In this document: in pieces, positions 7,833-52,881 of the stretch
How positions within the stretch are numbered: position 1 is the first letter of the stretch
How the letters are laid out: the number at the start of each line of letters is the position of its first letter
Source of the DNA: an uncultured Bdellovibrionales bacterium
GTDB lineage: Bacteria > Patescibacteriota > Minisyncoccia > Moranbacterales > UBA1568
Assembly: GCA_964580285.1 (NCBI GenBank)
Contig: CAZOKB010000001.1
Span: 73,366-137,365 of the forward strand
DNA: 64,000 nucleotides
Reading direction: 5' to 3'
Notes under the pieces: model-generated
Told to the model about the DNA's origin: nothing
What the model saw: the letters and a program-made list of their open reading frames with translations, nothing else
Database searches by the model: none
Made by a program: the position numbers and the translations under genes

Positions 7833-7838
7833 TAAGTT

Positions 7839-11535: not shown

Positions 11536-12993
11536 ATGCTGCTTGTCTATCTTATTGCGACTCCGCTCCTGGCTGCTTTTATACTTTTCTCACTCAAGCC
11601 TGGTCAGGTTCGCCTTATCGAACGTGTGGTCGGGTCAGCAGCGATTATAAGCGCCGTACTCTACACAGATATTCTCATGAGCTTTGAGTCAGGGATGACT
11701 CTTTCGGTGGGGAAGTACTTGGCTTTTGATGCGTTTTCAGCGCTCCTCTCTCTGATTATCTCCAGTATTGGTTTTTTTGTGGCGTTTTATGCGATCGGGT
11801 ATTTGCGTCATGAGGTTGCGAAGGGGATTGTGGGACCGCGCCGGGTAAAACAATTTTTCATACTTTTCGAGTTGTTTCTTTTTGCTATGCTCTTGGCATC
11901 GAGTGCTGCGAATCCGGTACTCATGTGGATCGCTATTGAGGCGACGACTTTAGCGACAGCTTTTCTTATCAGTTTTTATAACAAACCAACAGCTACGGAA
12001 GCTGCCTGGAAATACCTCATCATCAATTCACTGGGGCTGTTGGTAGGGTTTTTAGGAACCTTGCTGTTTCTTTCACTTCCGAATGAAATTGCGAGCGGTG
12101 GCATAATGACATGGGCGGATCTGCGTTCGGCGGCTCCAGAGTTTCATCCAATGGTAGCGAAGGTAGCTTTTTTGTTCGTTTTGGTCGGCTACGGAACCAA
12201 GGTAGGTCTCGTGCCAATGCACACGTGGCTACCGGATGCTCATGGCAAGGCTCCGTCGCCGATTTCTGCTCTCCTCTCCGGAGTACTGCTCAATGTAGCA
12301 CTGATCTCAATCTTGCGTTTCAAGGGCCTCGTGGACCTTTCTTTAGGAACGGCTTTTACTTCAACACTCCTCATGTATTTCGGTCTTGCTTCGCTCGTGT
12401 TGGCGGCACTCATTATTTTTACGCAACGGAGCTATAAACGCTTGTTGGCTTACTCGAGTATTGAACACATGGGCATTGTGGCCTTGGGTATTGGCTTTGG
12501 AGGAGTAGGCACGGTGGCGGCATTTTTCCATATTCTCTACCACGCGCTCTCCAAAGTATTCCTCTTCTTGGCAGCCGGAAACATTCTGCTTCGCTTTAGT
12601 TCTACAAAGTTTGCCTACGTTTCGGGTGTGATTCGTGCCTTGCCAGTAACAGGTGTGCTCTTTTTCGGCGGATTTTTGGCGATTTCCGGTTTGCCGCCCT
12701 TCGGAATGTTCTTTTCAAAATTCTTGATCCTTTCAGCTGGAGCAAACGAACATCTCTTGGTTATGGGAACGGCTGTAATAGCTCTAGCAGTCGTGTTTTA
12801 TGGATTTTTTCGACATGTTTCGCCGATGCTTTTTGGACCATTGCCAGAGGGTATTGAGCGAGGCGAGGCTAATTGGCTGACACTGTTTCCGCTTATAGCG
12901 CTGGCAGGCCTTTATCTTTTCTTGAGCTTCTCCGTGCCGGAACCTCTTTTAGCTATTCTTTCTGGCGCTGCTGATATGGTGAATTTCAAATAA
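11536..12993 (+). CDS. NuoN/NuoM/HyfF-like proton-translocating membrane subunit
   Basis: WLPDAHGKAPSPISALLSGVLLNVA antiporter-module motif. 485 aa. Confidence 0.75.
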   Translation: MLLVYLIATPLLAAFILFSLKPGQVRLIERVVGSAAIISAVLYTDILMSFESGMTLSVGKYLAFDAFSALLSLIISSIGFFVAFYAIGYLRHEVAKGIVGPRRVKQFFILFELFLFAMLLASSAANPVLMWIAIEATTLATAFLISFYNKPTATEAAWKYLIINSLGLLVGFLGTLLFLSLPNEIASGGIMTWADLRSAAPEFHPMVAKVAFLFVLVGYGTKVGLVPMHTWLPDAHGKAPSPISALLSGVLLNVALISILRFKGLVDLSLGTAFTSTLLMYFGLASLVLAALIIFTQRSYKRLLAYSSIEHMGIVALGIGFGGVGTVAAFFHILYHALSKVFLFLAAGNILLRFSSTKFAYVSGVIRALPVTGVLFFGGFLAISGLPPFGMFFSKFLILSAGANEHLLVMGTAVIALAVVFYGFFRHVSPMLFGPLPEGIERGEANWLTLFPLIALAGLYLFLSFSVPEPLLAILSGAADMVNFK

Positions 12994-13012
12994 TTTTTTC
13001 CACACTGATTCT

Positions 13013-14596
13013 ATGCACGATACGCACTCCCTTCTTTCTCGTCTTGGTCTCGATCATTTTCCTTCAAAAACGGAACGGAATCTGTTAGTGGTAACGGTAG
13101 CACAGGAACTCTTGCCTGGTGTAGCCCGAACGCTTCTGGCAGATCACGGTCTGCATCTTAAGACTGTCGTAGCCACGGATGAACGGCAGGCTGGAAGAGA
13201 TTTTGTGATCCGGTATATTTTTGGCTTACCCAAAGAGCCCGTGTTTGTGGTCTTGGAAATCGATGTGGATCGCTATGCTTGTACTTTCCCATCATTGGTT
13301 TTTGTGAGCCAAAGCTTCTCATTGTATGAACAGGAAATAAAGAGTTTGTTTGGACTTGAACCGGTAGGGCATCCTAAGCCAGATCGTATTATTTTGCATC
13401 GACACTATCCGAAAGAGTTCTATCCTTTGCGCAAAGATACTGCTTGGGATACCCGTTTTCCACTGCCCACTGAAGATACGGTGACGGAAGTGGAAGGAGT
13501 AGTGGGAGAGGGGATATATCAGATCCCCGTCGGACCGGTCCATGCAGGGATTATCGAGCCGGGGCATTTCCGTTTCAGTGCTCTGGGCGAAGAAATAGTG
13601 AAATTCGAAGCTGAGTTGGGGTATGTGCACAAAGGGACAGAAAAACTCTTTGAAACGCTGCCCTTGGAAAAAACGCTTTCTTTGGCAGAGCATATTTCCG
13701 GGGATAGCTCGGTGCATCATGCGTTAGTATTTGCCCAGGCTGTTGAGACTTTGACAGATGTCCGCGTGCCTGAGCGAGCGAAGCTGATTCGTATGGTATG
13801 TGCAGAACTGGAACGCCTAGCCAATCATTTCAATGATATCGGGTTCATTATGCTCGATACGGGTTTTTCATTCGGAGGGAGTCACGGAGCTCGCTTGCGT
13901 GAACGGGTGATGCAGTGGAACGAACGCCTTACGGGAAACCGTTTTTCTCGAGGGATGATTGCGTTTGGTGGCGTAAACCGAGACATTGAAGAAGCGCTCG
14001 TGGATGCCCTTCAGGATGATCTTGAATTATTGGAAGCTGATTTTAAGGAGGTGATAGAAATAGCCAAGGACTCGGATTCTCTTTATAATCGTTTGAAAGA
14101 AACGGGCCGATTGGATAAGGAGATCGCGGATGATTATGGAGTGATTGGAGTCGGGGCCCGAGCCCTGGGCTACGAGATAGATGCGCGTGTGGATTACCCG
14201 TATGCGGCGTATGAAGCCGTGCAGTTTGCGGTGGCTACCGAGAAACACGGAGATGTACATGCTCGTTTTTTTGTCCGGGTGAAAGAGGTATATCAATCAT
14301 TCCGTATCTTGAATCAGGTGTTAGCTCTACTGCCTTTTGAAACCTCAGCATTAAAAACAGCTCTTCCGGTACTTCCGAGAGAGGCTATGGCCGTAGGTAT
14401 GGTAGAAGGGTGGCGTGGTGATATTGTAACGTTTGTAGCCACAGATGCAGCTGGGAAATTGACTCGTGTCAAAGTGCGCGATACCTCATTCATCAATTGG
14501 CAAATTTTCCCTCACGTTTTATTGCGCGATATTGTTCCCGATTTCCCGCTCATCAACAAGAGCTTCGATCTTTCCTATTCAGGGAATGATCTTTAG
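13013..14596 (+). CDS. NuoC-NuoD fusion / HycE-like large subunit lacking the NiFe-binding CxxC motifs (Ehr-like large subunit)
   Basis: N-terminal NuoC-like domain plus NuoD/HycE-like core (GPVHAGIIEPGHFRFSALGEEIV). No N-terminal RxCGxC or C-terminal DPCxxC cysteines. Confidence 0.75.
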   Translation: MHDTHSLLSRLGLDHFPSKTERNLLVVTVAQELLPGVARTLLADHGLHLKTVVATDERQAGRDFVIRYIFGLPKEPVFVVLEIDVDRYACTFPSLVFVSQSFSLYEQEIKSLFGLEPVGHPKPDRIILHRHYPKEFYPLRKDTAWDTRFPLPTEDTVTEVEGVVGEGIYQIPVGPVHAGIIEPGHFRFSALGEEIVKFEAELGYVHKGTEKLFETLPLEKTLSLAEHISGDSSVHHALVFAQAVETLTDVRVPERAKLIRMVCAELERLANHFNDIGFIMLDTGFSFGGSHGARLRERVMQWNERLTGNRFSRGMIAFGGVNRDIEEALVDALQDDLELLEADFKEVIEIAKDSDSLYNRLKETGRLDKEIADDYGVIGVGARALGYEIDARVDYPYAAYEAVQFAVATEKHGDVHARFFVRVKEVYQSFRILNQVLALLPFETSALKTALPVLPREAMAVGMVEGWRGDIVTFVATDAAGKLTRVKVRDTSFINWQIFPHVLLRDIVPDFPLINKSFDLSYSGNDL

Positions 14597-26570: not shown

Positions 26571-28811
26571 ATGAGCATGCAAGATGACATTGCTTTTTTC
26601 GCCAAAACGAACTTCCGTAATCAGGAGCGGGTGTTTGGTATCAAGATGGACGACCGTCGCCGACACATGTATGTGATCGGGAAGACGGGTATGGGGAAAA
26701 CCAATCTCCTTGAGAACCTGGTGATTCAGGATATCCAAAAAGGCCACGGCGTGGCGTTTGTCGACCCGCATGGTGATACGGCCGAGAAACTGATCAAGGC
26801 TATCCCAGCCAATCGGATCAACGATGTGATCTATTTCAACCCGTCTGATCAGGATTTCCCGATCGCTTTTAACGTGATGGAAAAAGTAGGTCCGGAATAT
26901 CGGCACCTGGTGGCTTCCGGTTTGGTGGGTGTATTCAAAAAAATCTGGGCAGATTCGTGGGGACCTCGGCTTGAATATATTTTACGGAACGCTATTTTGG
27001 CGCTTCTCGAATACCCGGGGGCTACCCTCTTAGGGGTAACGCGTATTTTGGTAGACAAGGGCTATCGGGAACGAGTGGTAGAAAAGGTAACAGATCCGGT
27101 CGTGAAGAGTTTCTGGGTGGATGAGTTTTCCAAATGGAATGACCGTGTTCTTCAAGAGGTTATCTCGCCGATCCAGAACAAAGTTGGGCAGTTTCTTTCG
27201 AGCTCGCTCATCCGGAATATTGTAGGCCAGACCACATCCTCGTTCGATGTGCGTGCGGCTATGGATAGCCGGAAGATTCTCATTATGAACCTTTCAAAGG
27301 GGCGTATTGGAGAAGATAACAGCGCGCTCCTCGGGGCCATGATGATTACCAAGATCCAGCTCGCGGCTATGGGCCGGGTGGATATGCCAGAAGAAGATCG
27401 GGCAGATTTCTATCTCTATGTCGATGAGTTCCAGAATTTCGCTACGGAATCATTCGCGAATATTCTTTCTGAGGCGAGAAAGTATCACCTCAATCTCGTC
27501 TTGGCCAATCAGTACGTGACGCAGATTGATGAGAAAGTACGGGATGCTATTTTCGGTAATGCAGGCAGCATCATCGCGTTTCGGGTTGGGGCGACCGATG
27601 CGGAATTTCTTGAAAAAGAATTTGATCCTGTTTTTCTCATGAATGACATTGTTAATCTCCCTAAGTACCATATTTACCTCAAACTCATGATTGATGGTAT
27701 TGCGGGGGATGCTTTTAGTGCTGTTTCTCTTCCGCCGATCCGATTGGATCAGACTGAGGAAAACGCCGAAAAAGTCATTCGAATTTCTCGAGAACGGTAC
27801 GCTGCCAACAAAGGGGAAGTGGAAGATAAAATCCGTCGCTGGAGCGGCTTGTTAACGGAAGAGGAAAAAGCGGCGCTCTATAGTGGTGGTGCAGCAGAAC
27901 GACGTTCATTGGAACGACCAGCGCCCAGGGCGGTTCCTCGTCCGGCGGCTACTGTGCCGAAAAAATCAACCGTGATAAGTAGTCGGCCAGCGGCACGGCC
28001 AGTAACACCAGTGGCTGCTCCGCCGCGCCCAGTGACGCCGGTTCCAAAACCGATACCGCAAGCGGTGGTGCCCCAGAAACCCGCAAGGGAACCGGAAGTG
28101 TCGGTAGCCAAGGTTCAAGCGTCTGTACCGGTGCAGGCCGAGACACCCGTGGTTGCCTCGAACCCACTGATAGGTACTGAAGGAGTGAAAAAGGATGCCC
28201 CAACACCTGTTTTTGACCCACGGAAGTTTCAACCGAACCTCATCCGCTGGTCGGGTCATGAAGAGACGGCTAAGAAAAAAGAGGAAGCGCTGCAACAAGA
28301 AGAGCTAACCAATACACCGCCAGTTGAGGAGACAGTGGCGTCCAGCGTTACTCACGAGCCGGTACCGGTTATTGAAATACCAGAGTCAGAAGAAGTATCT
28401 TTGGCAGCAGCAGCGTCGGAGGCAGAGCGTGATGAAGTGCCTGAGAAGGTGTTGTATCCAGCAGCGTGCGCCACGTGCGGTATCGATATCGAGGTTCCGT
28501 TTGAGCCTGTACCGGGGCGCCCCACTTTCTGTAAAGACTGTCTGAAAGATTATCAGCGAGCGACGGCGAAGGCTCGTCGAGAAATGGAATCAAAACAGCA
28601 TCCAATGACTACGACTGCCTCTCTGACACGTTCGTGTACTCCGTCACAACGGCATATGCAGCCACAACGACATATACCGACAGAAGCACCAATGTCGCTC
28701 GCACAGATGCAGCATATCCAGCCGAAAAAATTCAAAACAATCCGTAAAAAACCGGATATTGATTTAGGGGATGTACGTTCGATGATTCAGGCTGTCAGAA
28801 AGGCTCAGTAG
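26571..28811 (+). CDS. TraD/VirD4/HerA-like (type IV coupling protein-like) P-loop ATPase with a Pro/Ala/Val-rich tail and C-terminal C4 zinc ribbon
   Basis: Walker A GKTGMGKTN. T4CP-like LYVDEFQNF...LVLANQY block. Tail repeats of PAARPVTPV. CATCG...CKDC near the C-terminus. Confidence 0.65.
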   Translation: MSMQDDIAFFAKTNFRNQERVFGIKMDDRRRHMYVIGKTGMGKTNLLENLVIQDIQKGHGVAFVDPHGDTAEKLIKAIPANRINDVIYFNPSDQDFPIAFNVMEKVGPEYRHLVASGLVGVFKKIWADSWGPRLEYILRNAILALLEYPGATLLGVTRILVDKGYRERVVEKVTDPVVKSFWVDEFSKWNDRVLQEVISPIQNKVGQFLSSSLIRNIVGQTTSSFDVRAAMDSRKILIMNLSKGRIGEDNSALLGAMMITKIQLAAMGRVDMPEEDRADFYLYVDEFQNFATESFANILSEARKYHLNLVLANQYVTQIDEKVRDAIFGNAGSIIAFRVGATDAEFLEKEFDPVFLMNDIVNLPKYHIYLKLMIDGIAGDAFSAVSLPPIRLDQTEENAEKVIRISRERYAANKGEVEDKIRRWSGLLTEEEKAALYSGGAAERRSLERPAPRAVPRPAATVPKKSTVISSRPAARPVTPVAAPPRPVTPVPKPIPQAVVPQKPAREPEVSVAKVQASVPVQAETPVVASNPLIGTEGVKKDAPTPVFDPRKFQPNLIRWSGHEETAKKKEEALQQEELTNTPPVEETVASSVTHEPVPVIEIPESEEVSLAAAASEAERDEVPEKVLYPAACATCGIDIEVPFEPVPGRPTFCKDCLKDYQRATAKARREMESKQHPMTTTASLTRSCTPSQRHMQPQRHIPTEAPMSLAQMQHIQPKKFKTIRKKPDIDLGDVRSMIQAVRKAQ

Positions 28812-29019
28812 CGGAAGATGGATACAGGAACCAGTGAAACGCTTTGCCCGGCAGAGCGTTTTTTGGTATCCTATAAGGGTAACCGGACTGAAAAGAAGAG
28901 AGATATGAGCTTTCGTAAATGGCATCGCCGGGCCTATATATTTTGGGTGATCGCGTCTGGATTGGTAGCGCTTTCTATGATTGCTTTTTTGTTGGCGCCG
29001 CTCCTCTATTCGTAGGCAT

Positions 29020-29418
29020 ATGCAGAAGGAGAAATTGTTCTTTCGAATAGTACTCCTGGGAGCCTTGTTTCTGGTGATCTGGGTAGGGTTCGCTTCCTAT
29101 CGTTCGCTCAAGCGTACGTGGGCTATTGATCAGGAGATTGAAAAACTGGAAAACGAAGCGCAGCAGATTGAACGAGAGAACGCGACGTTACGAGAAAAGA
29201 TAACCTATTTTTCTTCAGCGAATTTCCAGGAGCGTGAAGCGAAGGAGAAGCTCGGATTGAAGAAGACTGGTGAACAGGTTGTGATTATCAAAGCCTTGCC
29301 GGAAACCGATGATGCACACGCTTTGATTCCGACTATCGATACGGGCCGCACTGCCGAGTTTCGTTCTCCCAACTATTACAAATGGTGGAAACTCTTTTTT
29401 AGTCGCACTACCTTATGA
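29020..29418 (+). CDS. FtsB/DivIC-like septum formation initiator
   Basis: Single TM then coiled coil (IEKLENEAQQIERENATLREKI) then the conserved KEKLGLKKTGEQVVII tail. Confidence 0.6.
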   Translation: MQKEKLFFRIVLLGALFLVIWVGFASYRSLKRTWAIDQEIEKLENEAQQIERENATLREKITYFSSANFQEREAKEKLGLKKTGEQVVIIKALPETDDAHALIPTIDTGRTAEFRSPNYYKWWKLFFSRTTL

Positions 29419-30509: not shown

Positions 30510-31823
30510 ATGGATACTTTTCAAAATGAGAAAGAACCAATGAAAGAATCGATCAAGCCAGCTACTGCTTCTTCAGCGGCTTTCGATTGGGAGCGCCACA
30601 GCCGGTCTTCCTTGAAACTGTTTATGTTCCTTTTGGTGGCTGCCGTGTTTGGTTTCATTGGGGGAACCACGGCTCCTTTCTTTTCAGCTATGCTGAAACA
30701 GCACATGGCCACGCTCTCAACCGGAAAAGAAACATCAACTGGAGAACTTCCAAAACCAGGTCGTCAAGAAGTTTCTTCGCAAGATGATACTATCGTGGTG
30801 GATCTTGTAGGGCGTAATTCTCCAGGTGTCGTCAGTATTGTGATTACGAAAGACGTGCCAAAGGTACGGAATTTTTTCCAGAACCCGTTTTTCTTTGATC
30901 CATTTGGTAGTTCTTTCGGACAACAAAGAGGGTTGGGGGGCGGAGGAACAGAAAAGCAACAGGTAGGGAGTGGGTCCGGGTTTATTGTTTCGGAAGACGG
31001 TTTAGTGGTGACCAACCGGCATGTGGTGGTCGATGCAACAGCGGAGTATACCGTCATCACCAGTGATGGGAAGGAACATGCAGCGACGGTGCTCGCGCGT
31101 GATCCGAATAAAGATATCGCCGTACTTAAGATTGAAGGATCGAATCTGCCGGTACTTGATTTGGGGGATTCGGATACGGTGAAGGTGGGCCAGACGGTGA
31201 TTGCTATCGGGAATCCTTTAGGGGAATTTGCTAATTCCGTCACTCGCGGGATTATTTCTGGCGTAAAACGCGAGGTATATGCGGGCTCATCGAGGAGTGG
31301 TCAGTCTGAACAGCTTTCCGGAATTTTCCAGACGGATGCCGCTATTAATCCAGGGAATTCCGGTGGTCCACTTTTTAATTTGTCTGGTGAAGTGATTGGC
31401 GTAAATGTTGCGATGGCACAGGGGGCGGAAAATATCGCCTTTGCCCTGCCGATCAACCAAGTGAAGCGCGTTATTGATGAGGTGAAGACTACGGGGAAGA
31501 TTTCAACGCCCTATATTGGCGTGCGCTATCTGATTCTAGATGAAGCTATTGCGAAAGAGAATGGGCTACCGCTTGATCATGGTGCCTTAGTCATTCGTGG
31601 AGAAAAAATGACCGACTTCGCGGTGATTCCTGGTTCACCGGCGGATAAGGCGGGTATTGTTGAGAACGATATTCTCCTTGAGGTGAATGGTACGAAAATT
31701 GATGCACAGCATCAGCTCACAGACCTGATCGGGGACAAGCGTGTGGGGGATGAGATTACCTTGAAAGTGTGGCATAAAGGTGACGCCAAGGATGTAAAGC
31801 TCCGGCTTGAGGAGCGGAAGTAG
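30510..31823 (+). CDS. HtrA/DegP-family serine protease with C-terminal PDZ domain
   Basis: Catalytic triad contexts TNRHVV, DIAVLKI and GNSGGPL, plus a PDZ domain. Confidence 0.85.
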   Translation: MDTFQNEKEPMKESIKPATASSAAFDWERHSRSSLKLFMFLLVAAVFGFIGGTTAPFFSAMLKQHMATLSTGKETSTGELPKPGRQEVSSQDDTIVVDLVGRNSPGVVSIVITKDVPKVRNFFQNPFFFDPFGSSFGQQRGLGGGGTEKQQVGSGSGFIVSEDGLVVTNRHVVVDATAEYTVITSDGKEHAATVLARDPNKDIAVLKIEGSNLPVLDLGDSDTVKVGQTVIAIGNPLGEFANSVTRGIISGVKREVYAGSSRSGQSEQLSGIFQTDAAINPGNSGGPLFNLSGEVIGVNVAMAQGAENIAFALPINQVKRVIDEVKTTGKISTPYIGVRYLILDEAIAKENGLPLDHGALVIRGEKMTDFAVIPGSPADKAGIVENDILLEVNGTKIDAQHQLTDLIGDKRVGDEITLKVWHKGDAKDVKLRLEERK

Positions 31824-31866
31824 CGGAAAAGAGAATAGAGAATAGGGAATATTGAATAGTGGGATA

Positions 31867-31892
31867 AAGAGGCTTTTTAAAGCCTCTTTTAG
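31867..31892 (+). terminator. hairpin terminator after htrA (AAGAGGCT-ttttaa-AGCCTCTT, then TTTT)
   Basis: Perfect 8-bp inverted repeat at 31867-31888 followed by a short T-run. Confidence 0.55.
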
Positions 31893-31894
31893 TA

Positions 31895-31923
31895 TTGACA
31901 AAAATATGTAAATATGCTATTTT
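31895..31923 (+). promoter_or_regulatory. sigma70-like promoter of the island (TTGACA, 17 nt spacer, TGcTATTTT)
   Basis: Consensus -35 at 31895-31900 and extended -10 at 31915-31923. It is followed by a ~90 nt 5'-UTR with inverted repeats CTTGATC/GATCAAG and TGTGC/GCACA. Confidence 0.45.
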
Positions 31924-32014
31924 CTCTTGATCCCTGAGTCTGTGCATGGGGCACAATAACTCTTTGTGATCAAGCCGTTCTTTGGCAAATCAACCCTTCT
32001 TTAGGAGAAATACC

Positions 32015-32662
32015 ATGGCAAAAGCTGCCACTCAAGTACAAGACTCCCTCAAGCGCGTCATGCTGACCCTCGAGGGCATCCGGCCGCTCCTCATCAATAC
32101 CATGACGCCGTTTGAAGTCATGGCGCTGAACAAAGATCTTGCGCCGGACGCTGTCAACAAGGTGAAGGCATTGAAGCAGATGACACTGCCCGAGCAGATC
32201 AAGGTGAAGTACGAGCTCTGGCGCGATCCGGAAACCGGCAAGGTCGGCATTTGGTCGCACATGCTCTACGCTGCTCTGGTCGGCGCCGGCAAGTTCATCA
32301 AGTACGAGGGCAACATGAAGCTCTCGACTTCGAAGAGTTCGCTCGTGCCGAGTTTCCTTACCATCGTCGATGAACACCTACCCTTCGTTGATCAGGGTTC
32401 GGACGGGAAGGGAACGCCGTATACGGACGACTACCGGCGTGGCGAGGCCAATCAGGGCAGCGGTGCCGTGTGCGTCGCTCGTCCCATGATCGGAAGCGGC
32501 TGGCGGGTCGGTGTGGATATCGAGGTGGAGACCACTCTTCTCGATCTCGTCCGTACCCGCGAGCTCTTCGACAAGGCGGGGCGCATGTCTCGCTTGGGCT
32601 CTTTCCGCACCAAGGCTGACTTCGGGATGTTCCGGGTCGCCGAGTGGGAAGTGATGAACTAA
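32015..32662 (+). CDS. hypothetical protein (215 aa) and first gene of the GC3-rich island, of unrecognised family
   Basis: ATG at 32015 preceded by AGGAGA. Strongly GC3-biased codons unlike the flanking genes. Confidence 0.6.
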   Translation: MAKAATQVQDSLKRVMLTLEGIRPLLINTMTPFEVMALNKDLAPDAVNKVKALKQMTLPEQIKVKYELWRDPETGKVGIWSHMLYAALVGAGKFIKYEGNMKLSTSKSSLVPSFLTIVDEHLPFVDQGSDGKGTPYTDDYRRGEANQGSGAVCVARPMIGSGWRVGVDIEVETTLLDLVRTRELFDKAGRMSRLGSFRTKADFGMFRVAEWEVMN

Positions 32663-32674
32663 TATCACTCACGC

Positions 32675-34918
32675 AACTGCGGCGACTTCGGTTGCCGCAG
32701 TTCTCAAGTGTATTTGCAAGAGTATACTTGAGACTCTGCTTTTGAAAGAGAGCAGGGTATAGAGAGTATAGCAATGTATTCTTGTGCTACATTCGGTTTC
32801 GCGGATTTTTGTTTTGGATCGATCCTCTGCTTCAGCACGATCGATCATCTTATAAGGATTCGCAAGAGTTTTTATAAGACTTCGCTTTCGAAAAAGAGTG
32901 AAGCGAAAGATGCAGTTGTGTCGTATGCTGAGCTGTTAGGTATTTTGACCCAGTGTCCTTTATTGGCTCGTACCTCTATGAAAATATGCACGAGCATCTA
33001 AAGCATTTTGGTGACAGAATGTTTTGGACAATCTCTTCGTAAGAGGGGATTGTAATGTTGTTATGCAGCGCCGTGTGTTCTTCTTTCCTATACTTTCGCG
33101 TATCCTAGTGGACCGAGCCTCTCCACCAACGCTCGGTCATCCCTGAATACTTTCAAGAAGAGAGTATTGAGGACAACATCCTCGCAAGAGGGGGTTGTAC
33201 AGTAGTTTCGACTTAAGCTAAGCGTTGTTCTTTGACCTAATTTCCACAAGTGTTCTGGACTGAGCCTCTCCGTCAATGACGGACGCTCGGTCATCCTAAG
33301 CGCTTTTGTGAAAGAGTGTTTAGGACAGCATCCTCGTAAGAGGGGGTTGTGAAGTGTAAGTTCGGACTTGTAAAATTACGCAGTCCAAACTCCGCACGAG
33401 TTCTTTATATTACTGGAGCGAACCTCTCCGCCCAAGGCGGACGTTCGCTCGCTGTTCGCGGGATGTATGTCTCGCCTGATGAGCCGGAAACGGCGAAAAC
33501 AGTCGTTCTTTGATACGGTATCCTACCGTAGAGCTAACAGAAGTTATCCTAATTCGCTTCCTGTTTTGGCTCGTACCTCTGCTTTGGTACGTACGAGCAC
33601 CTTAAATATATTGGGAACAGTGTATTTAAGGCATCATCTTCGAAAAAGGATGATGTACTGGGTAGTGTTGGGTCTCGTCAAGCAACGAAAAGTTACCTTG
33701 GATCCTTTCCTGGATCAGCCCTCTGCCTCGGTACGACTGATCATCTTATGAGTATTCGCAAGAGTGTTCATAAGACTCTTCTCTTGGAAGAGAGTAGAGT
33801 GATTCCAGTTACATCCAGTTACGTACTGCTCTCCGTCGTAGTTTATGTTTCTGGCTCGCACCTCTGCTTCGGTACGTACGAGCATCCAAAGCATTTTAGA
33901 AACAGAATGTTTTGGACAATTTTCTTGGAAGAGAAAATTGTGAAGGGAATAATCTCCTATACCGTTGCGCAACGTACGGTCATGTAGCGTAGCGTAATGG
34001 ACCGAGTCTCTGTATAAATTCATACACGCTCGGTCATCTTATGAATATTTGCAAGAGTGTTCATAAGACTCTGCTTTCGAAAGAGAGCGGGGTACAGTAG
34101 TGTGCCGTCATGCATAGTGCAGTAATGTTTTTTACTGGCTCGTATCTCTGTGCAAGCATGTACGAGCAACTTAAATGCATTGTAAGCAGTGTATTTAAGA
34201 CTTCGCTTTCGCAAGAGAGTGAGGTGAAAGATGCAGTTTTGTCGCATGCTGTGTTGTTAGGTATTTTTATCTAGTGTCCTTTATTGGCTCGTGCCTCTAC
34301 TTCGGCACGCACGAGCACCTTAAACGCATTTACAGAAGTGTGTTTAAGACTTTGCTTTCGAAAGAAAGTAAGGTGTACCAATCTCGTAGCGTGTGGCATA
34401 GTTTTCTTCGGATCGGTGCTTTATTCTAAAGGCTCGCATCTCTCTGTTTCGGCGGATGTGTGAGCATCTTAAGTGCATTTGCAAAAGTGTATTTAAGACT
34501 TCGCTTTCGCAAGAGAGCAGAGTATTTCTGTAAAGCACTGTGGCGTACTGTGGCGTGAACTTCTTTGGACTGAATTGGAGCGGTCTGAATTGCTGGCTTG
34601 CGTCTCTGCGAAAGTACGCGCGAGCACCAAAAGTATTTTGGTAACAGAATATTTTGGGTATTATCTTCGCAAGAGGGTGATACTTGTAGATACGTATTCT
34701 CCGGTCCTGAACTGTGTGTTAAATCAATGCAATGGCTCGTACCTCTCTGTTTCGGCAGACGTACGAGCATCCTGAATATTTTCGAAAAGAGAATATTGAG
34801 GACAATCTCTTCGCAAGAGGGGGTTGTCATAGTAGCATCGTGTTGAGCTAGGTCATCTAGTGCACGTGTATAGTAAATTACTGGACCGAGCCTCTTCGTT
34901 AATGACGAACGCTCGGTC
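32675..34918 (+). repeat. tandem array of about 16 degenerate structured-RNA modules with ~146-nt period. Each module is hairpin E1 (5' stem arm then CCTCT), hairpin E2 (10-bp AT-rich stem), GNRA-tetraloop hairpin E3 (CYYYC-GNAA-GAGRG then GGGKTGT), then a ~50-nt variable linker
   Basis: E1 starts at 32675, 32817, 32965, 33110, 33257, 33415, 33568, 33712, 33853, 33998, 34137, 34285, 34430, 34595, 34733, 34882. Stems covary (GGCTCGTAC/GTACGAGC, GGACCGAGC/GCTCGGTC, GGAGCGAAC/GTTCGCTC, GGCTCGTGC/GCACGAGC, GGATCGATC/GATCGATC). ORFs in the region are repeat translations. Confidence 0.7.
33450..33504 (+). ncRNA. type III hammerhead ribozyme HHR-1, with predicted self-cleavage 3' of C33457
   Basis: Stem III CGCUGUU/AACAGUG. 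GUC-like site UUC, cleaved after it. Stem I GCGGG-atgtatgt-CTCGC. Core CUGAUGA at 33476-33482. Stem II GCCG-GAAA-CGGC, then GAAA at 33495-33498. Confidence 0.8.
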
Positions 34919-35018
34919 GCTGTCGGTAGGTGTGTGCCTATCCTGATGAGCCCAGCACTTACATCATCCGATTCATTGATGGTGTAAGTGCATTCCGTAA
35001 GTGCTGGGCGAAACAGCG
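34918..35018 (+). ncRNA. type III hammerhead ribozyme HHR-2, with predicted cleavage 3' of C34924, ending 30 nt upstream of the helicase start codon (in its 5'-UTR)
   Basis: Stem III CGCUGU/ACAGCG (6 bp). Cleavage site GUC at 34922-34924, cleaved after it. Stem I GGUAGG-ugugug-CCUAUC. CUGAUGA at 34943-34949. 12-bp stem II CCCAGCACUUAC/GUAAGUGCUGGG with a 34-nt loop. GAAA at 35010-35013. Confidence 0.85.
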
Positions 35019-35048
35019 TCATGGTTCATTTCCAAGAGGAGTTTGCAC

Positions 35049-36839
35049 ATGCAAACACATATCATGCAGTTTTTCCCGTACGAGAAGTACGAGCAGCCGA
35101 CAGCGCTGCAGGAAACAGCACTTGCCTTTATCGGCGAAAACGCTTCTTTTGGCCCCGTCGTCACTGAGCTCCCCACCGGGACCGGCAAGACCGCCATTGG
35201 CATCGCGTATTTGCGCGCCATGAGTCAGCCGAAACGTGTGAACTTCTACCTGGTTTCGAACAAAGTGCAGGCAGAGCAGGTGAAGTTGATGCACCCCGAG
35301 GTTGAAATCATGCTCGGCCGAAGCGAGCATCAGTGTCTCTATTACGAAGGTGAACAGGTGAACGCGGAAGAGATTCCGTGCATGGCTCTCAAGGACTGTC
35401 CGCATCGTGTGCACCAGCAAAGCGGCGAGACGCATACACTGGGCGCGATTCCGTGTCCGTACCTCAAGCAGAAGTACGACACGAAAAGTGCTCAGATCGT
35501 TGTTGCGACGGTCCCGTTTTATCTCTGCGCTGTTTTCTTCGGGAAGCAGTACGACGTGGGGGCTGTGGTGGTTGACGAGGCGCATAATATCGCCAAGATC
35601 GTGCGTGGGAGCTTGTCGCACCGTCTCTCCAATCACAAGTTGGAGCGGATGATCGGCGTGCTCGAACACTCAGGTTTCGGCGACGAAGCGGAAACGCTCG
35701 GACAGTTCCTCAAGCTGGTGCGTTCTACGATCACAAGGAATAAGAAACAAGAACGTTCGACGCTCGGGACGACGGAAGTGGAGAAGCTGCTTGGGACTTT
35801 GCGCGGGATTGATCGACGCAAGATTGAGGAAGCGATGTATGCTTCGCTCAAGCAGGGTATTCTCAATCCGGTGAGCGACCGCGATCTCTTGAAGCAATTC
35901 GAGGTGCTCTCGCGGGATCTCAAACGTTACATCAACTCGCTGGAGTTCTCTTTGCCGCAGGGTGATCATAAGCCGCTTGCGTATGCGTTTGGGTATCTGG
36001 ATCCGGAGTACGAGGACGGGAAGAAAGACTTTGCACTGGTGATCAAGAATTATCATGTCGCTGGTCTCATCCACCACATGCTTCCGGAGAAGACACTCGC
36101 GTACTCGGCAACCATCGGCGACGCGGAATGTTTCGGTTTTGAAACCGGGCTGCGTGGCGCGTTCACTTCACTTGAGTCGGAATTTGCTCATGAGAAGACG
36201 CGTATCTATATGCCGACCGACACGCAGGATCTTGCGTACGACAGTCGTGGTAATCGCGATGTAGCACGTTCGCTCCGGCTTGTAGCGCGTAGTGTCGCCA
36301 AGTTCAACATGCAAGGGTTGCGATCGCTCGTGGTGCTCGTATCTGAAGACGAACGGCAGCGGTTCTTGCGGATGTGTCCGGAAGCAGAACTAAACGGCGG
36401 AGCTCTTGAAGCTGTTTCGTACGGCAAAGGGGTGACAGCACGGGAAGCCGCGGTGCGGTTTAAGGATGGCGTTGGCGATGTGCTTGTGGGGACGGTGTCG
36501 CAGTACGGCGAGGGGGTTGATCTCCCGAATCGCATTGCACCGGTCATTTTTTATCTCCGACCGGCCTATCCCAATCCCTATGAACCGGAAGCGCAGTTTG
36601 AAGCTAGTCGGTACGGATCGCGCCGGTTTGCGGTTTGGAACTGGCGGGTGATGAACGATCTTCTGCAAGTGCGAGGGCGCAATATCCGCTCGGTGAATGA
36701 CGAAGGGGTCACCTTTCTCATTTCCCAGCAGTTTCGCAAGTTCGCCCGCCCGACACTTCCGAAGTGGCTCCTGCCGGCGTACGTGGCCGACAAGAGTATG
36801 GAAGAGTGCGTGGATGACGCGATGCGACTTCTCGTTTAA
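35049..36839 (+). CDS. DinG/XPD (Rad3)-family FeS-cluster DEAH-box helicase
   Basis: Motif I LPTGTGKT. Four-cysteine FeS insertion (HQCLYY...CMALKDCP...CPY). Motif II VVDEAHN. Strong SD AAGAGGAG 7 nt before ATG 35049. GC3-rich like the island ORF. Confidence 0.75.
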   Translation: MQTHIMQFFPYEKYEQPTALQETALAFIGENASFGPVVTELPTGTGKTAIGIAYLRAMSQPKRVNFYLVSNKVQAEQVKLMHPEVEIMLGRSEHQCLYYEGEQVNAEEIPCMALKDCPHRVHQQSGETHTLGAIPCPYLKQKYDTKSAQIVVATVPFYLCAVFFGKQYDVGAVVVDEAHNIAKIVRGSLSHRLSNHKLERMIGVLEHSGFGDEAETLGQFLKLVRSTITRNKKQERSTLGTTEVEKLLGTLRGIDRRKIEEAMYASLKQGILNPVSDRDLLKQFEVLSRDLKRYINSLEFSLPQGDHKPLAYAFGYLDPEYEDGKKDFALVIKNYHVAGLIHHMLPEKTLAYSATIGDAECFGFETGLRGAFTSLESEFAHEKTRIYMPTDTQDLAYDSRGNRDVARSLRLVARSVAKFNMQGLRSLVVLVSEDERQRFLRMCPEAELNGGALEAVSYGKGVTAREAAVRFKDGVGDVLVGTVSQYGEGVDLPNRIAPVIFYLRPAYPNPYEPEAQFEASRYGSRRFAVWNWRVMNDLLQVRGRNIRSVNDEGVTFLISQQFRKFARPTLPKWLLPAYVADKSMEECVDDAMRLLV

Positions 36840-36860
36840 TTTGGATCAGCTGATCCAATT

Positions 36861-36890
36861 GGCCTACTACTAAAATAGTAGGCCTTTTTC
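36861..36890 (+). terminator. rho-independent terminator of the island (GGCCTACTA-ctaaaa-TAGTAGGCC then TTTTT)
   Basis: Perfect 9-bp stem followed by a T-run, 22 nt after the helicase stop. Confidence 0.75.
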
Positions 36891-36901
36891 TTTTTCCTAA
36901 A

Positions 36902-36928
36902 TTAGCACTCTAGTACTGAGATTGCTAA
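36902..36928 (+). promoter_or_regulatory. CIRCE element (HrcA operator) upstream of clpB
   Basis: TTAGCACTC-N9-GATTGCTAA matches the consensus TTAGCACTC-N9-GAGTGCTAA with one mismatch. Confidence 0.65.
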
Positions 36929-37117
36929 TTTTTTATTGTGGTGATAGAGTAGTAATAAGAAAGATGGAGTACGGAGAAGGGAATAGATGCTATTTCAAGC
37001 GGGTCGATACATCTTCATCATGAAGAGAAAACGCAGATCCCTCGACAAGCTCGGGATGACAGATCAAAGGAATTTTATTCTTAAATCAAAAATCTTATAT
37101 CTTAAATCTTTTTTCTT

Positions 37118-39766
37118 ATGAACATCAACAAATTCACTACTAAAAGTCAGGAGGCGCTCCGGCACGCACAGGAGATTGCTTTGTCACGCAATAATCCGCA
37201 GATGGAGATCGCGCATCTTCTTTATGCGCTCCTCATGCAGGAAGATTCTATTGTGCCGGTGGTGATCGGAAAGTTAGGGATAGATATCGAGGTGGTACGA
37301 GGAGCCGTGCTGGATGAGATTGATAAGTTCCCGCGGGCTGAATCTGGGGCGATCGGCCAATTGTATCTGGCTCCGCATTTGGCACAGGTCTTTGCTGAGG
37401 CTGAAAAAGAAATGCAGAAAATCGGCGATACGTTTGTTTCGACGGAACACTTGCTGTTAGCTGTACTCTTGGTGCCGAGTCATGTGAAGTCGGCTCTTGA
37501 AAGTATGCAGGTGCGGTACGATGTCGTCTTGACGATGCTTAAGGAGGTGCGCGGTAATCAACGGGTGGAGAGTCAAGAACCGGAACAAACTTATCAAGCG
37601 CTGGAAAAATATGCCCTTAATCTTACCAAGCAGGCACGCGAAGAAAAGCTGGATCCTGTGATCGGTCGGGATGAAGAAATTCGCCGGGTGATGCAGGTCC
37701 TGTCACGGCGCACGAAGAATAATCCGGTACTGATCGGTGAGGCGGGTACGGGGAAGACGGCAATCGCGGAGGGTTTGGCGCAGCGGATCGTTTCGGGTGA
37801 TGTTCCCGAAAGTCTTAAGGAAAAAGAAATTATTTCGCTCGACTTAGGGGCGCTCTTGGCGGGAGCCAAGTTCCGAGGAGAATTTGAAGAACGCTTGAAA
37901 GCCATTCTGAAAGAGGTAGAGCGTTCAGCAGAGCGGTTCATTCTCTTTATCGATGAAATCCATACGCTCGTGGGGGCGGGAGCGACCGATGGAGCGCTGG
38001 ACGCTTCGAATATGCTGAAGCCGGCTTTGGCTCGAGGAAAGCTTCGGACGATTGGTGCTACTACGCTGAAGGAATATCAAAAATATATTGAGAAAGACGC
38101 GGCGTTTGAGCGGCGTTTTCAGCCGGTGTTTGTGAGTGAACCTTCAGAAGAGGACGCTATCGCTATTCTTCGGGGCATTAAGGAAAAGTATGAATTGCAT
38201 CATGGTGTGAAGATAGATGATGATGCGCTGATTGCAGCGGTGCGTTTATCACGCCGCTATATCAGTGACCGCTTCCTTCCGGACAAGGCTATCGACCTGA
38301 TTGATGAAGCTGCTTCGCTTCGGCGCATGGAAATTGATTCGATGCCGGAAGATTTGGATCAGTTGGAGCGGAATATCCGTCGACTGGAAATTGAGAAACG
38401 GGCGTTGGAAAAAGAGCGCGAGGCATCAGCCAAAAAGAAGATTGCTGCTATCAACCGGGAACTTTCTGAATTACGGGAACGCAGCCAGAAATTTTCTCTG
38501 CAATGGAAAGCGGAACGTGAACTGATCGCGGCTATACGGGCGCGTAAGGAAGAACTGGACCGCTACCGTTCGGAAGCGGATAGTGCTGAGCGGCGAGGCG
38601 AACTGGATCGGGTCGCGGAGATTCGCTATGGATTGATTCCTGAAACTGAGAAAAAGATGCGAGCGGAGGAAAAGAAGCTGGAAGGTTTGCAACAGTCAGG
38701 ATCCATCTTGCGGGAAGAGATTACGGAGGAAGAAATAGCGGCGGTGGTCTCGCGCTGGACGGGGGTACCTATAAAGAAGATGCTTGCAGGAGAAGAAGAA
38801 AAGCTGGTGTATATGGAAAAGGCTCTGCAAGAACGGGTGATCGGGCAGGATGATGCCATCCGTGTCGTTGCACAGGCGATTCGGCGTTCCCGGACCGGTC
38901 TGTCGGAAGAAGGTCGGCCGATTGGATCTTTTATGTTCCTCGGTATGACGGGTGTTGGAAAAACGGAGCTGGCTAAGGCGCTGGCGGCCTTCCTCTTTGA
39001 TGATGAACGGGCGTTGGTGCGGGTAGATATGAGTGAATACATGGAAGCGCATGCCACGGCCAAACTGATTGGATCACCTCCGGGGTATGTGGGGCACGAT
39101 GAGGGAGGACAGTTGACGGAGACGATTCGTCGGCGGCCGTATAGCGTGATCCTGTTTGATGAAATTGAAAAAGCCCATCCAGAAGTTTTCAATATTTTCT
39201 TGCAGATTCTGGATGATGGCCGGCTCACCGATGCCAAAGGGCGGGTGGTGAATTTCAAGAATAGTGTCATTATCATGACGTCGAATGTCGGCTCCGATGT
39301 TCTGCTGAGGATGCAGGCACTTGGTTTCCAGGGGGAGCGCAAAGATCGGGATGATCCACGAGAAGAAGATATGAAGTCGAAAATTATGGCCAGCTTGAAA
39401 GAAACATTTCGGCCGGAGTTTTTGAACCGTATTGACGAGATCGTGGTCTTTCATCCGCTTTCGAAGCAGGCGATTCGGAATATTGTGGATGCTGAATTGA
39501 AAAAATTGGATCGTCGACTTGCGGTACAAGAGATTCGTATAGAATGGCCAGAGAGCGTGCGGAAGCACTTGGCAGAAAAGGGGTATGATCCGCTCTACGG
39601 TGCGCGGCCGCTCAAGCGGGTGATACAGAACGATATTCTTGATGTACTGGCTCTGGATATCCTGGAGAAAAAATGGGAGGCCGGCCGATGGCTTCGGGCT
39701 TCAGTAGAGAAGGGGCGAATAGCTTTCGGGGTACGCCGTCCGATTCAAAAGAGGAAAAAGATCTAA
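37118..39766 (+). CDS. clpB: ATP-dependent chaperone ClpB
   Basis: Clp N-domain, NBD1 (GEAGTGKTA), long coiled-coil middle domain, NBD2 (GMTGVGKTE) and the ClpB C-terminus. Confidence 0.9.
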
Positions 39767-50418: not shown

Positions 50419-52881
50419 ATGACTCATCTGGCTTTTTTTGCTTGGTACTATCGTGAGGGTGCGCGCAATGGTTTTTCAAATGTGAAAAATCTTTTACGTG
50501 CGGTGCTGCATCGTTTCAATACGCGTGAGCTAGCACTCACTCTTTTTGCTCCATGGAAGCGGGATATTGAATACCGCACGTGGCGTGGTTTTCATCCTTT
50601 GCGAGCGTTCGTGCGTTTTATCGATAATACTCTTTCTCGGTTTATGGGCATGTGGGTACGCTTGCCAGTAGTGCTCTATGGTTTCGCATATCTTTGTGTG
50701 GCTTTGGTGATTTCTTTTGCGGTCTATGTGTGGTATCTCGGAGCGCCTCTTTGCTTGCTCATAGGGCTGTACGGGTTTTTTACGGGTTTCTCATTAGCTC
50801 CTGTTTTGGTGCTGGCGGGTATCTTTGGAATGCTTTTTGGATTCCTGTGCTTTCTTATGCGCACACCGGAACTCGAAGTGATTGGTAATATTGATTTTTT
50901 GGCTCTTCAGAAAAAACCTTGGTTTTATCGAGTGTTGGCGCGATTAGAGATGGATATCAAAGATATTCCGGCTGATGCACTGGCCAATGTCAGGGCGTTT
51001 ATGGCGCTCCTTAAAATCCGCAATATTGATGAAGAAACCCTGGCCATCGCTTTAGATATCGAGCAACGAGCTTTTGTGCGGCAGGCCCGAGCTAAGCGTT
51101 TTTGGCTTTGGGAAAACCTGGAGAAAAAAACTCCTCTGGGTAAGGGGTGGCGTTTTGGGTACACTCCTCGACTTGATCGCTATTGTTTAGATCTCTCTCA
51201 GGAAGATCCAACGGAGTACCGTTCTATGGAACTTATCGGTCGTCAAGCGGAATTCCGAGTGGCAACTGTGGTGCTGGAGCGTCCTGAACAGAATAATATT
51301 TTCTTGGTGGGTGAGCCGGGTATTGGTAAAAAAATGTTTGTGCACTATCTGGCACGGTTGATTCGGGAAAGTGCCTTTCCCAAAAACAGCTCCTTGAATG
51401 ACCTGCGCGTACTCCTCTTTGATCTTGAAGAAGCGATTGGTGAAATATTGAATCGAGGAGAGAATCCAGAAGATACGTTGCGCGGACTCTTTTTTGAGGC
51501 TGCATCAGCAGGGAATGTGCTCCTGGTGGTTGAGGATGTCGATTTGTTTTTAGGGACAGATCCACAGAAACTGAATATCGCGCATCTTTTGAATGAATTT
51601 TTAGCACTCCCATCCTTCCGTTTCATTGGAACAGCGGTGGCGGCTCGGTATCATGCGCTCGCTAAAAAAGATGAACAAATCCTCAAACTCTTTGAAACTA
51701 TCTATCTTCGTCAGCCAAATGTGGCTGAGAACCGCGAGATCCTTGTCCAGTTTTTTGCACAATCAGAGCGGAGGCAGGTAGTGCTGACCCTGAAGGCGAT
51801 TGAGACGATTATTATGTCATCGCGTCGGTACAATTGGGAAATGCCGTATCCGGAACGGGTGCTTGATTTAGCTCAGCAGGTGATGATTTATTTCCGTAAT
51901 CAGCCAGGGCGTTTCTTGACGGAGAAGGTGGTGAACGAGTACGTGAGCATGAAGACGGGTATGCCGATCGGGGAAGTTGGTGCGGATGAACAGAAGAAGC
52001 TCTTAAATCTTGAAACTGAGCTCCATGAGCGTGTGATCGGCCAGAATGAAGCGGTGAACCAGGTGTCGCAGGTGCTCCGTAAGGCCCGAGCAGGCTTTCA
52101 TGATCCAAAACGACCACTGGGGAGTTTTCTCTTTATGGGCCCAACAGGTGTAGGGAAAACCGAAACCGTTAAAGCCTTGGCCGAATCGATTTTTGGTGAT
52201 GAGGAAAAAATGTTCCGGATTGACATGAGTGAGTTTCAGATCCCAAACAGTCTGGAACGTTTGCTTGGATCACAGGCCGACGGTTTGCCAGGCATTCTCA
52301 CGAAAGCCATGAAAGAGCATCCATACTGCATCTTGCTTTTGGACGAAATCGAAAAGGCTTACCCAAAAATTTTGGATGTGTTCCTGCAGATTATTGATGA
52401 AGGCATGGTGACGGATAGCTTTGGTGAAAAGATCAATTTCCGTAATGCCATTATTATTGCGACTTCGAATGCGGGGTCAGTATTGATCAAGGAGCTCTCT
52501 GAACAGGGGATACCGCTCAATGTGCTCCGGAAACAAGTCATTGATCAGGTGGTACATGAAGGTATTTTCCGTATCGAATTTATGAACCGCTTTGATAATC
52601 TCATTTTCTTCGAACCGCTCTCAGCTCCGCAATTGACTGATATCGCGGAACTGAAGCTCAAGAAATTTGTAGATCAGATCAAGGCTGAAAAAAATATCGA
52701 AGTGGTGATCGCGCCGGGAGTGACGGAGCGTATTGTGGCCCATGGGTACGAGCCACAGTTTGGGGCTCGCTCGGTGAATCGGTACATTATGGATCATATT
52801 GAAGATATCGTGGTGCGCAAGGTTATTTCGGGAGCCGTGAAGTCTGGCGGCAGTGTTATTATCGGCCCTGAGGATATCTAG
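50419..52881 (+). CDS. membrane-anchored ClpA/ClpB-like AAA+ ATPase (N-terminal 4-TM domain plus two NBDs)
   Basis: TM helices within the first ~150 residues. NBD1 GEPGIGKK. NBD2 GPTGVGKTE...LLLDEIEKA...IIDEGMVTD. ClpB C-terminal block GARSVNRYI. Confidence 0.65.
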   Translation: MTHLAFFAWYYREGARNGFSNVKNLLRAVLHRFNTRELALTLFAPWKRDIEYRTWRGFHPLRAFVRFIDNTLSRFMGMWVRLPVVLYGFAYLCVALVISFAVYVWYLGAPLCLLIGLYGFFTGFSLAPVLVLAGIFGMLFGFLCFLMRTPELEVIGNIDFLALQKKPWFYRVLARLEMDIKDIPADALANVRAFMALLKIRNIDEETLAIALDIEQRAFVRQARAKRFWLWENLEKKTPLGKGWRFGYTPRLDRYCLDLSQEDPTEYRSMELIGRQAEFRVATVVLERPEQNNIFLVGEPGIGKKMFVHYLARLIRESAFPKNSSLNDLRVLLFDLEEAIGEILNRGENPEDTLRGLFFEAASAGNVLLVVEDVDLFLGTDPQKLNIAHLLNEFLALPSFRFIGTAVAARYHALAKKDEQILKLFETIYLRQPNVAENREILVQFFAQSERRQVVLTLKAIETIIMSSRRYNWEMPYPERVLDLAQQVMIYFRNQPGRFLTEKVVNEYVSMKTGMPIGEVGADEQKKLLNLETELHERVIGQNEAVNQVSQVLRKARAGFHDPKRPLGSFLFMGPTGVGKTETVKALAESIFGDEEKMFRIDMSEFQIPNSLERLLGSQADGLPGILTKAMKEHPYCILLLDEIEKAYPKILDVFLQIIDEGMVTDSFGEKINFRNAIIIATSNAGSVLIKELSEQGIPLNVLRKQVIDQVVHEGIFRIEFMNRFDNLIFFEPLSAPQLTDIAELKLKKFVDQIKAEKNIEVVIAPGVTERIVAHGYEPQFGARSVNRYIMDHIEDIVVRKVISGAVKSGGSVIIGPEDI

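Follow-up and report, generated by a model that had tools for sequence, protein, structure and literature searches.

Introduction

VIPR (Viral Interference Programmable Repeat) systems carry out RNA-guided DNA recognition; they were described in 2026 and have been proposed to be older than CRISPR (10.64898/2026.04.26.720920). As set out in the preprint, the Vipr protein is a small (~20 kDa) ancestral single-RRM RAMP that carries a G-loop and a thumb and is related to Cas7, and its guide RNA, the vrRNA, is composed of 9-16 YNNGG pentamers and a conserved structured tail, with NNNGG, YNNNG and NNNNG as variants (10.64898/2026.04.26.720920). The same text describes ribonucleoprotein formation and DNA targeting by the vrRNA through a gapped pairing code, working RNAs that are linear and ~100 nucleotides (nt) long, and minimal loci, set between long intergenic stretches, in which vipr is joined by one accessory vap gene that has a DNA-related function and encodes a nuclease or helicase in types III-V. 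For types I and V it also reports 'hammerhead ribozyme-interspersed arrays', for which small-RNA sequencing served as a check; it covers 667 loci, and its target matching was set at 80% or better (10.64898/2026.04.26.720920). In a companion study, Vipr on the vrRNA forms a helical filament (10.64898/2026.04.26.720927). Here we analyse a 64,000-nt stretch of contig CAZOKB010000001.1, hereafter the window, in which a gene for a Cas7-like protein, a non-coding array with two predicted hammerhead ribozymes and a gene for a DinG-like helicase follow one another. We put at roughly 85% the probability that a Patescibacteria-like bacterium here carries a VIPR system on its chromosome, with the hammerheads as processing elements of the array RNA. 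The assignment draws on sequence anatomy, protein fold, homology, covariation and cassette conservation.

Elements of other kinds share parts of this architecture. Retrozymes and viroid-like circular RNAs with hammerheads occur in plants, metazoans and satellites, and a sequence-only reading of the window had placed the interval between the two hammerheads (33458-34924) with such elements, as an excisable and possibly circularisable RNA. Engineered ribozyme-guide RNA (gRNA)-ribozyme and transfer RNA (tRNA)-gRNA arrays release CRISPR guides from one transcript, the tRNAs being cut by host enzymes. Type IV-A CRISPR-Cas resembles the locus in combining a Cas7-fold protein with a DinG-family helicase, there as a Csf2/Cas7 filament on CRISPR RNA together with Csf4.

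Results

A Cas7-like protein and a DinG-like helicase on either side of the array

The first gene of the cassette, vipr (ORF1; 32015-32662, plus strand), encodes a predicted single-domain Cas7-like RAMP of 215 amino acids, for which there is no Pfam family. Its AlphaFold model reaches a predicted local distance difference test (pLDDT) score of 85 from a 26-sequence alignment, versus 34 from 5 close sequences only, and the best structural matches of the model are Csm3, Cmr4, Cmr6, type VII Cas7 and Csf2. The modelled fold is that of a RAMP/Cas7 protein, and the product carries a C-terminal G-rich motif (GLGDFRPxxKGxFGxF). The vipr family comprises 409 cluster representatives. When its profile was compared by hhalign with the Vipr candidate of SUSP1 (gene 28474-29061 on the minus strand, chosen by locus layout), the match had a probability of 98.5% and E=3e-15; the intergenic DNA adjoining that candidate contains GGY/NN repeats. 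Peptide-pattern searches of GTDB genomes, IMG/VR and JGI metagenomes found no relatives of ORF1, and tblastn of ORF1 against a phage collection returned nothing.

The second gene (35049-36839, plus strand) encodes a DinG/XPD-like helicase of 596 amino acids, a candidate vap-type accessory protein, with the Pfam domains Helicase_C_2 and DEAD_2. It matches PADLOC typeIV_DinG over its full length (E=2e-33). Many of its homologues, which share 42-50% identity with it, are found in Patescibacteria, including Kaiserbacteria and Paceibacterota.

Fifteen guide units with a pentamer frame and a covarying tail

The non-coding stretch that separates vipr from the helicase gene (32663-35048) holds an array of 16 modules, each ~145 nt long, with 15 guides: five before the first hammerhead (HHR-1) and ten between the hammerheads. 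A module consists of a hairpin with a conserved CUCU internal loop (H1), two long hairpins with GNRA-type loops (H2 and H3) and a variable stretch of 43-71 nt. Thirteen of the 15 units have the covarying double hairpin H2-H3 after H1, and the other two end in a hammerhead, which replaces H2-H3 directly after H1 in modules 6 and 16.

Directly after the vipr stop lies a leader (32679-32757, plus strand) made of a plain hairpin, H2 and H3 with no guide in front; this hairpin set, read from the sequence and from the fold of module 1, is kept in the related loci L001 and L002. The proximal array (32758-33457, plus strand) contains guides 1-5 with their tails, as delimited by pentamer register, folds and covariation, and its fifth H1 tail (33414-33450) is ended by the predicted HHR-1 cleavage. 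The segment 33458-34924 (plus strand), which makes up the distal two-thirds of the ~2.3-kb array, begins with the body of HHR-1 and continues with ten vrRNA units. Guides 6-10 of the array, the first five in this interval, occupy 33506-33566, 33656-33710, 33800-33851, 33941-33997 and 34093-34135, and guides 11-15 occupy 34225-34284, 34374-34429, 34523-34593, 34683-34732 and 34827-34881 (all plus strand). Their H1 tails start at 33567, 33711, 33852, 33998, 34136, 34285, 34430, 34594, 34733 and 34882 on the same strand; nine are then followed by H2-H3, and the tenth is ended by the second hammerhead, HHR-2. The ten module starts that the sequence-only reading had listed in the interval (33567 to 34882) are correct, and its description of the interval as non-coding and made of structured modules is borne out by the module folds and by tests of open reading frames (ORFs): the longest has 198 amino acids and lies on the minus strand, and none of the five tested reaches the Pfam threshold.

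The hairpins are supported by covariation. When 21 modules, drawn from the window and from two relatives, are aligned, 23 of the 31 pairs in H1, H2 and H3 show compensatory changes. The variable stretches have a regular structure of their own. The dinucleotide GT recurs in them every 5 nt (z = 7.5-8.6 for lags of 5, 10 and 15), a strict period that is also present in the arrays of L008 and L009 (z = 10-18) and absent from a coding control. Each guide contains ~9-11 YNNNG pentamers, and in 14 of the 15 the pentamer frame stops 3 nt 5' of the TGG that opens H1. Position 1 of the pentamer is T in 71% of cases (Y in 87%) and position 5 is G in 55%, while positions 2-4 carry only 0.01-0.09 bits. 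Given the SUSP1 Vipr match, this pentamer frame and the preprint definition of VIPR, we read the window as holding a VIPR system with 15 YNNNG guide units.

Two kinds of duplication are present within the array. Modules 2-3 (32807-32978) and 11-12 (34128-34299) form a 172-nt segmental duplication with 77% identity, guides included, and two guide pairs therefore differ at few inner pentamer positions only. Perfect 10-nt tandem duplications lie inside guides at 33804-33822 (TCCAGTTACA x1.9) and 34537-34556 (ACTGTGGCGT x2.0); since each equals two pentamers, they suggest that slippage lengthens guides in increments set by the repeat frame.

The alternation of repeats and variable stretches, together with the full-length match of the helicase to the type IV DinG profile, could also indicate a divergent CRISPR array of a minimal type IV-like system (one Cas7 plus DinG) whose variable stretches are acquired spacers. 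We consider this exceedingly unlikely. The variable stretches carry a 5-nt Y...G frame locked to the tail, the units arise by segmental duplication and drift, as in modules 2-3 and 11-12, and the supposed repeats are ~95 nt long within the ~145-nt units and 60-80% identical. Type IV CRISPR loci are defined by near-identical short repeats, unrelated spacers and Csf1-Csf3, and the window departs from this pattern: it has one RAMP gene, with HtrA and ClpB genes flanking the cassette, and no match to the Cas1, Cas2, Cas5, Cas6 or Cas8 families was found among the genes scanned with Pfam. Compared with type IV-A systems, the cassette lacks a CRISPR array, adaptation genes and a Cas5-, Cas6- or Cas8-like subunit, and its guides are set in a pentamer frame rather than being contiguous spacers. 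Readings as a protein-sponge tandem array of small RNAs, as a type III toxin-antitoxin-like repeat RNA or as involving a Cas6-type processing enzyme were also dropped in the light of the Cas7 fold of the protein, the 5-nt frame of the guides and the preprint on VIPR.

Two type III hammerheads on the same strand

HHR-1 (33451-33504, plus strand) is a predicted type III hammerhead composed, in order, of gcuguuC, GCGGGAuguaugUCUCGC, CUGAUGA, GCCGgaaaCGGC, GAAA and ACAGU, with cleavage predicted after the last base of gcuguuC (C33457). Its stem I pairs GCGGGA with UCUCGC around a uguaug loop, and its stem II pairs GCCG with CGGC around a gaaa loop. HHR-2 (34918-35019, plus strand), of the same type, is composed of cgcuguC, GGUAGGugugugCCUAUC, CUGAUGA, a stem II in which GCCC and GGGC enclose a 52-nt extension, GAAA and CAGCG; stem I pairs GGUAGG with CCUAUC around a ugugug loop. 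Cleavage is predicted after C34924, which is 124 nt 5' of the helicase start codon. The type III core (CUGANGA...GAAA, H17 and the A15.1-U16.1 pair) is complete in both.

A structural pattern scan that demanded the core together with full pairing in stem I and partial pairing in stems II and III matched only HHR-1 and HHR-2 in the 64-kb window and had 0 matches in 100 shuffles. In a 4-kb search with Rfam RF00008 (Hammerhead_3), HHR-1 scored 27.0 bits (E=0.01) and HHR-2 34.0 bits (E=1e-4), both below the gathering level. The minimum-free-energy fold of 33414-33510 is a three-way junction for HHR-1; the native HHR-2 is misfolded by minimum-free-energy folding. The core, the stems and the pattern scan thus confirm that two hammerheads in the same orientation have predicted cleavage sites 1467 nt apart, as the sequence-only reading had proposed. 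Established hammerhead chemistry also implies, as that reading further stated, that twin self-cleavage would excise 33458-34924 and leave it with 5'-OH and 2',3'-cyclic phosphate ends. H1 and its hammerhead together form a short direct repeat of 62 nt with 73% identity, and the ribozymes themselves also align. The stem II extension of HHR-2 (34950-35010) holds GTAAGTGC twice, and GCACTTAC can therefore pair in two alternative ways.

Hammerheads of related loci provide a wider comparison. Twelve distinct copies from five independent loci align without gaps, with a core that is invariant except for the variable N7. Compensatory change is seen in 14 of the 16 stem pairs, and 96.9% of cells are paired versus 38-46% in slid controls, a percentage inflated by a collection filter that required pairing. 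The relatives' hammerheads give sub-threshold Rfam matches of 30.7-42 bits, and they share a design in which stem I has 6 base pairs (bp), the loop is UGURUR and a short stem II is capped by GAAA. In L001, the orthologue of HHR-1 shows compensatory changes in stems I and II, and that of HHR-2 scores 39.5 bits in Rfam, its stem II being a plain 4-bp helix closed by a GAAA loop.

Related loci and the position of the hammerheads

The vipr-array-helicase cassette is also present in L001, L010-L012, L014/L015 and L016/L017. Four independent Patescibacterial loci have, upstream of the helicase, both an array and a homologue of Vipr (hhalign E-values between 1e-43 and 2.5e-33). On sequence grounds L001 is truly orthologous to the window locus: identity is 85% for clpB and 81-82% for Vipr and the helicase, and clpB adjoins the cassette in both. 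Between its ribozymes L001 has five units versus ten in the window. The spacing of the cleavage sites differs among loci, at 143 and 610 nt in L013, 279 nt in L012, 720 nt in L001 and 1467 nt in the window, and no hammerhead was detected in the array of L016.

In the relatives, the hammerhead always stands directly after a tail hairpin. L001, L012 and L013 have one hammerhead 60-125 nt before the helicase start codon, as does the window, and in L013 one guide has hammerheads on both sides, 143 nt apart. L010-L012 and L014 have a further hammerhead downstream of the helicase, placed after a unit. These hammerheads 3' of the helicase in Kaiserbacteria-type loci were located at 6130-6184 in L012, 8238-8291 in L010 and 7118-7203 in L014; in these three loci guides therefore lie on both sides of the accessory gene, unlike in the window, which has a terminator-like site there. 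A 201-amino-acid gene adjoining the L013 array was considered as a Vipr and is not one.

These positions bear on the role of the ribozymes. HHR-2 and its counterparts in L001, L012 and L013 stand 60-125 nt upstream of the helicase start codon, one putative promoter and one terminator-like site frame the cassette, and 13 of the 15 guides are not bounded by a hammerhead. All of this would suit hammerheads that act mainly as operon insulators, uncoupling the stability and translation of the vipr and helicase messenger RNAs (mRNAs) from the structured array and playing a minor part in guide maturation. As the main role we think this unlikely, though it deserves to be taken seriously. HHR-1 is internal to the array and distant from the genes, the L013 guide is hammerhead-bounded on both sides, the hammerheads of L010-L012 and L014 follow a unit 3' of the helicase, and the register in which each hammerhead adjoins its H1 tail is fixed. 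Insulation would complement guide processing in a VIPR array, and the two are compatible.

More distant loci organise their arrays differently. In L008 (GCA_034680565.1; protein identity 28%), arrays at 6647-7944 and 8700-9780 flank vipr. Short hairpins alternate there with G/T-rich variable stretches, and the tail hairpins of the two arrays differ. The upstream array is bounded by tRNA genes at 6647-6719 and 7667-7739 (with a weaker match at 7896-7944), where the window has hammerheads. L009 (8001-10600) has tandem vipr paralogues at 8001-8669 and 8722-9330 followed by a 1.2-kb array in which a short ATGGCGAGGTTCCCCA-type motif is conserved and the guides are strongly GGT-periodic. Engineered guide arrays are comparable to the window in that ribozymes or tRNAs punctuate a multi-guide transcript, as do the tRNAs that bound the L008 array; the window array differs in being natural and in having a hammerhead only 3' of some guides.

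The interval between the hammerheads as a possible circular RNA

The interval shares with retrozymes and viroid-like RNAs its same-strand type III hammerheads, their setting in short direct repeats (the 62-nt H1-hammerhead repeat), the non-coding stretch between them and the 5'-OH and 2',3'-cyclic phosphate that cleavage would leave. Such ends are, by established chemistry, those joined by RtcB, and the excised 1467-nt RNA could be ligated by RtcB or by reversal of the hammerhead reaction into a stable circle that is functional or mobile. RtcB ligation would need no hybrid ribozyme across the junction. In L012 the hammerheads share their stem III register and such a hybrid could form. In the window and in L001, however, stem III of HHR-1 is one A-U pair longer than that of HHR-2, and the junction hybrid is off by one base because of this difference in register. 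The minimum-free-energy fold of the junction hybrid shows no hammerhead, a weak result given that native HHR-2 also misfolds by this method.

We judge a circle of this kind to be very improbable. The interval is made of ten guide units, whose number varies among relatives, and the working RNAs of VIPR systems, according to the preprint, are linear and ~100 nt long. Because the distance between ribozymes ranges over 143, 279, 610, 720 and 1467 nt among the loci, and one array has no detectable hammerhead, the 1467-nt unit is not conserved. Unlike a retrozyme, the locus is single-copy in the window, shares its synteny with clpB with the relative L001 and lies within an operon of protein-coding genes. 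Among the window's 29 ORFs of at least 300 amino acids, none encodes a reverse transcriptase or RtcB, the rest of the genome being outside the scope of this search. No marks of a retroelement were found in the 64 kb, where the only two hammerheads belong to one operon; primer-binding and polypurine sites were not part of that search. The proposal of a retrozyme-like, circularisable RNA was thus not borne out: the interval is part of a guide array in a VIPR operon, with unconserved spacing, at a single-copy syntenic locus. The locus is most likely not a bacterial retrozyme; excision of the interval is plausible.

It is also conceivable, if improbable, that the excised ten-guide RNA is circularised or otherwise stabilised through its ends as a reservoir of guides, with H2-H3 as a new guide-release element that is interchangeable with a ribozyme.

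Predicted operon layout and chromosomal setting

A putative sigma-70 promoter (TTGACA-17-TATTTT, with TG before the second hexamer) lies at 31895-31923 on the plus strand. Identified by consensus match only, it agrees with the consensus at 10 of 12 positions and is the best promoter-like site in 31700-37200; the TTGACA-17 arrangement also stands 5' of vipr in L001 and L002. Between this promoter and the vipr start is a ~90-nt 5' untranslated stretch (31924-32014), which is conserved in L001 and L002 and contains a nested hairpin, cttgatc...gtgcatggggcac...gatcaag. This stretch could be regulatory, or it could represent an upstream vrRNA that has degenerated. At the other end of the cassette, 3' of the helicase gene, an intrinsic-terminator-like site (36861-36894, plus strand; again a consensus match) has a stem of 9 bp, 5 of them G-C, with TTTTTCTTTT after it, and is the best such site of the region.

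The cassette is flanked by ordinary chromosomal genes, htrA upstream and clpB downstream, and further out lie recJ, dnaX and proS-like genes as well as glycosyltransferases. Genes for two ClpB-type AAA+ chaperones (37118-39766 and 50419-52881) stand 10.7 kb apart, and in the second no Clp_N domain was detected. A cluster at 7839-14596 resembles an Mrp antiporter or complex I (two Proton_antipo_M genes, NADHdh and a fused 30-kDa/49-kDa subunit) and is unexpected for a small Patescibacteria-type genome.

Discussion

The locus agrees with described VIPR systems in its principal components. It encodes a small Cas7-related single-domain RAMP homologous to the SUSP1 Vipr candidate, its guides are tandem pentamers in which the Y and G frame is conserved and the inner positions are free, and a conserved structured tail stands 3' of each guide. 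In addition, vipr is accompanied by one accessory gene with a DNA-related product, type III hammerheads lie within the array, and the location is chromosomal. Differences are also apparent. The repeat of the window is YNNNG, not YNNGG; its tail is a hairpin with a CUCU internal loop, and that of SUSP1 is a pseudoknot; a hammerhead ends only two of its 15 units, with the H2-H3 double hairpin after the other 13; and it has 15 guides versus the four vrRNAs of SUSP1, the sole array size given in the preprint text available. Judged against that same text, type V appears to be the most consistent VIPR assignment.

Our observations suggest how the array RNA could be processed. A single transcript that starts at the putative promoter (31895) and stops at the terminator-like site (36861) would probably contain vipr, the 15 vrRNA units and the helicase gene. 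In each unit the YNNNG pentamers would serve as the guide and the H1 hairpin as the tail. Each hammerhead is placed so that its predicted cut falls 7 nt past the tail it abuts, and cleavage would yield a vrRNA with a fixed 3' end and a 2',3'-cyclic phosphate, the ribozyme body staying on the downstream 5' end. The HHR-1 cut would part the vipr mRNA and guides 1-5 from the rest of the transcript, and the HHR-2 cut would finish guide 15 and free the helicase mRNA, whose 5' end would be structured and bear a 5'-OH. Setting vrRNA 3' ends and detaching the helicase mRNA are most likely the functions of the ribozymes. The 1467-nt RNA would be a ten-guide processing intermediate that needs further cutting; the presumed place is H2-H3 or its vicinity, and the presumed agent either a host RNase or Vipr. 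We infer this separator role for H2-H3 because, in 13 of 15 units, it occupies the hammerhead's place. Vipr would then form a filament over the mature vrRNAs, these would guide binding to DNA, and the helicase would act on the bound target, a role suggested by its similarity to DinG. Co-transcription is likewise a proposal that the layout of the cassette invites.

Several observations weigh against a VIPR array processed by its hammerheads. Because a hammerhead ends only two of the 15 units, another processing route is needed. Some guides are degenerate, given that position 5 is G in only 55% of pentamers. Exact-match scans of three guides against IMG/VR returned 0, 0 and 2 matches, and the two are about what chance would give for an 18-base pattern, with flanks that do not extend the match; these scans used NN positions with one skipped base (an NN-x rule) and exact matching only, and they assumed a YNNNG pairing rule that may differ from the actual one. 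Neither hammerhead reaches the RF00008 gathering score of 48.5 bits, and for this reason the Rfam scan at gathering threshold finds no ribozyme in the window. The twelve hammerhead copies were gathered with a pattern that itself demands pairing; the independent evidence for them lies in the Rfam matches and the syntenic positions. Self-cleavage of both hammerheads and co-transcription of the cassette are predictions.

Hammerhead-interspersed vrRNA arrays are already known from VIPR, as the preprint describes, and the locus adds a further example. It is a clear chromosomal case, with 15 guides, a DinG-like partner reminiscent of type IV CRISPR-Cas and, as markers of defined processing points, two hammerheads. 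Cassettes of this kind are common among Patescibacteria, and how many guides stand between the ribozymes changes fast from one close relative to another. Within one array, the separators are mixed, hammerheads standing alongside a covarying double hairpin.

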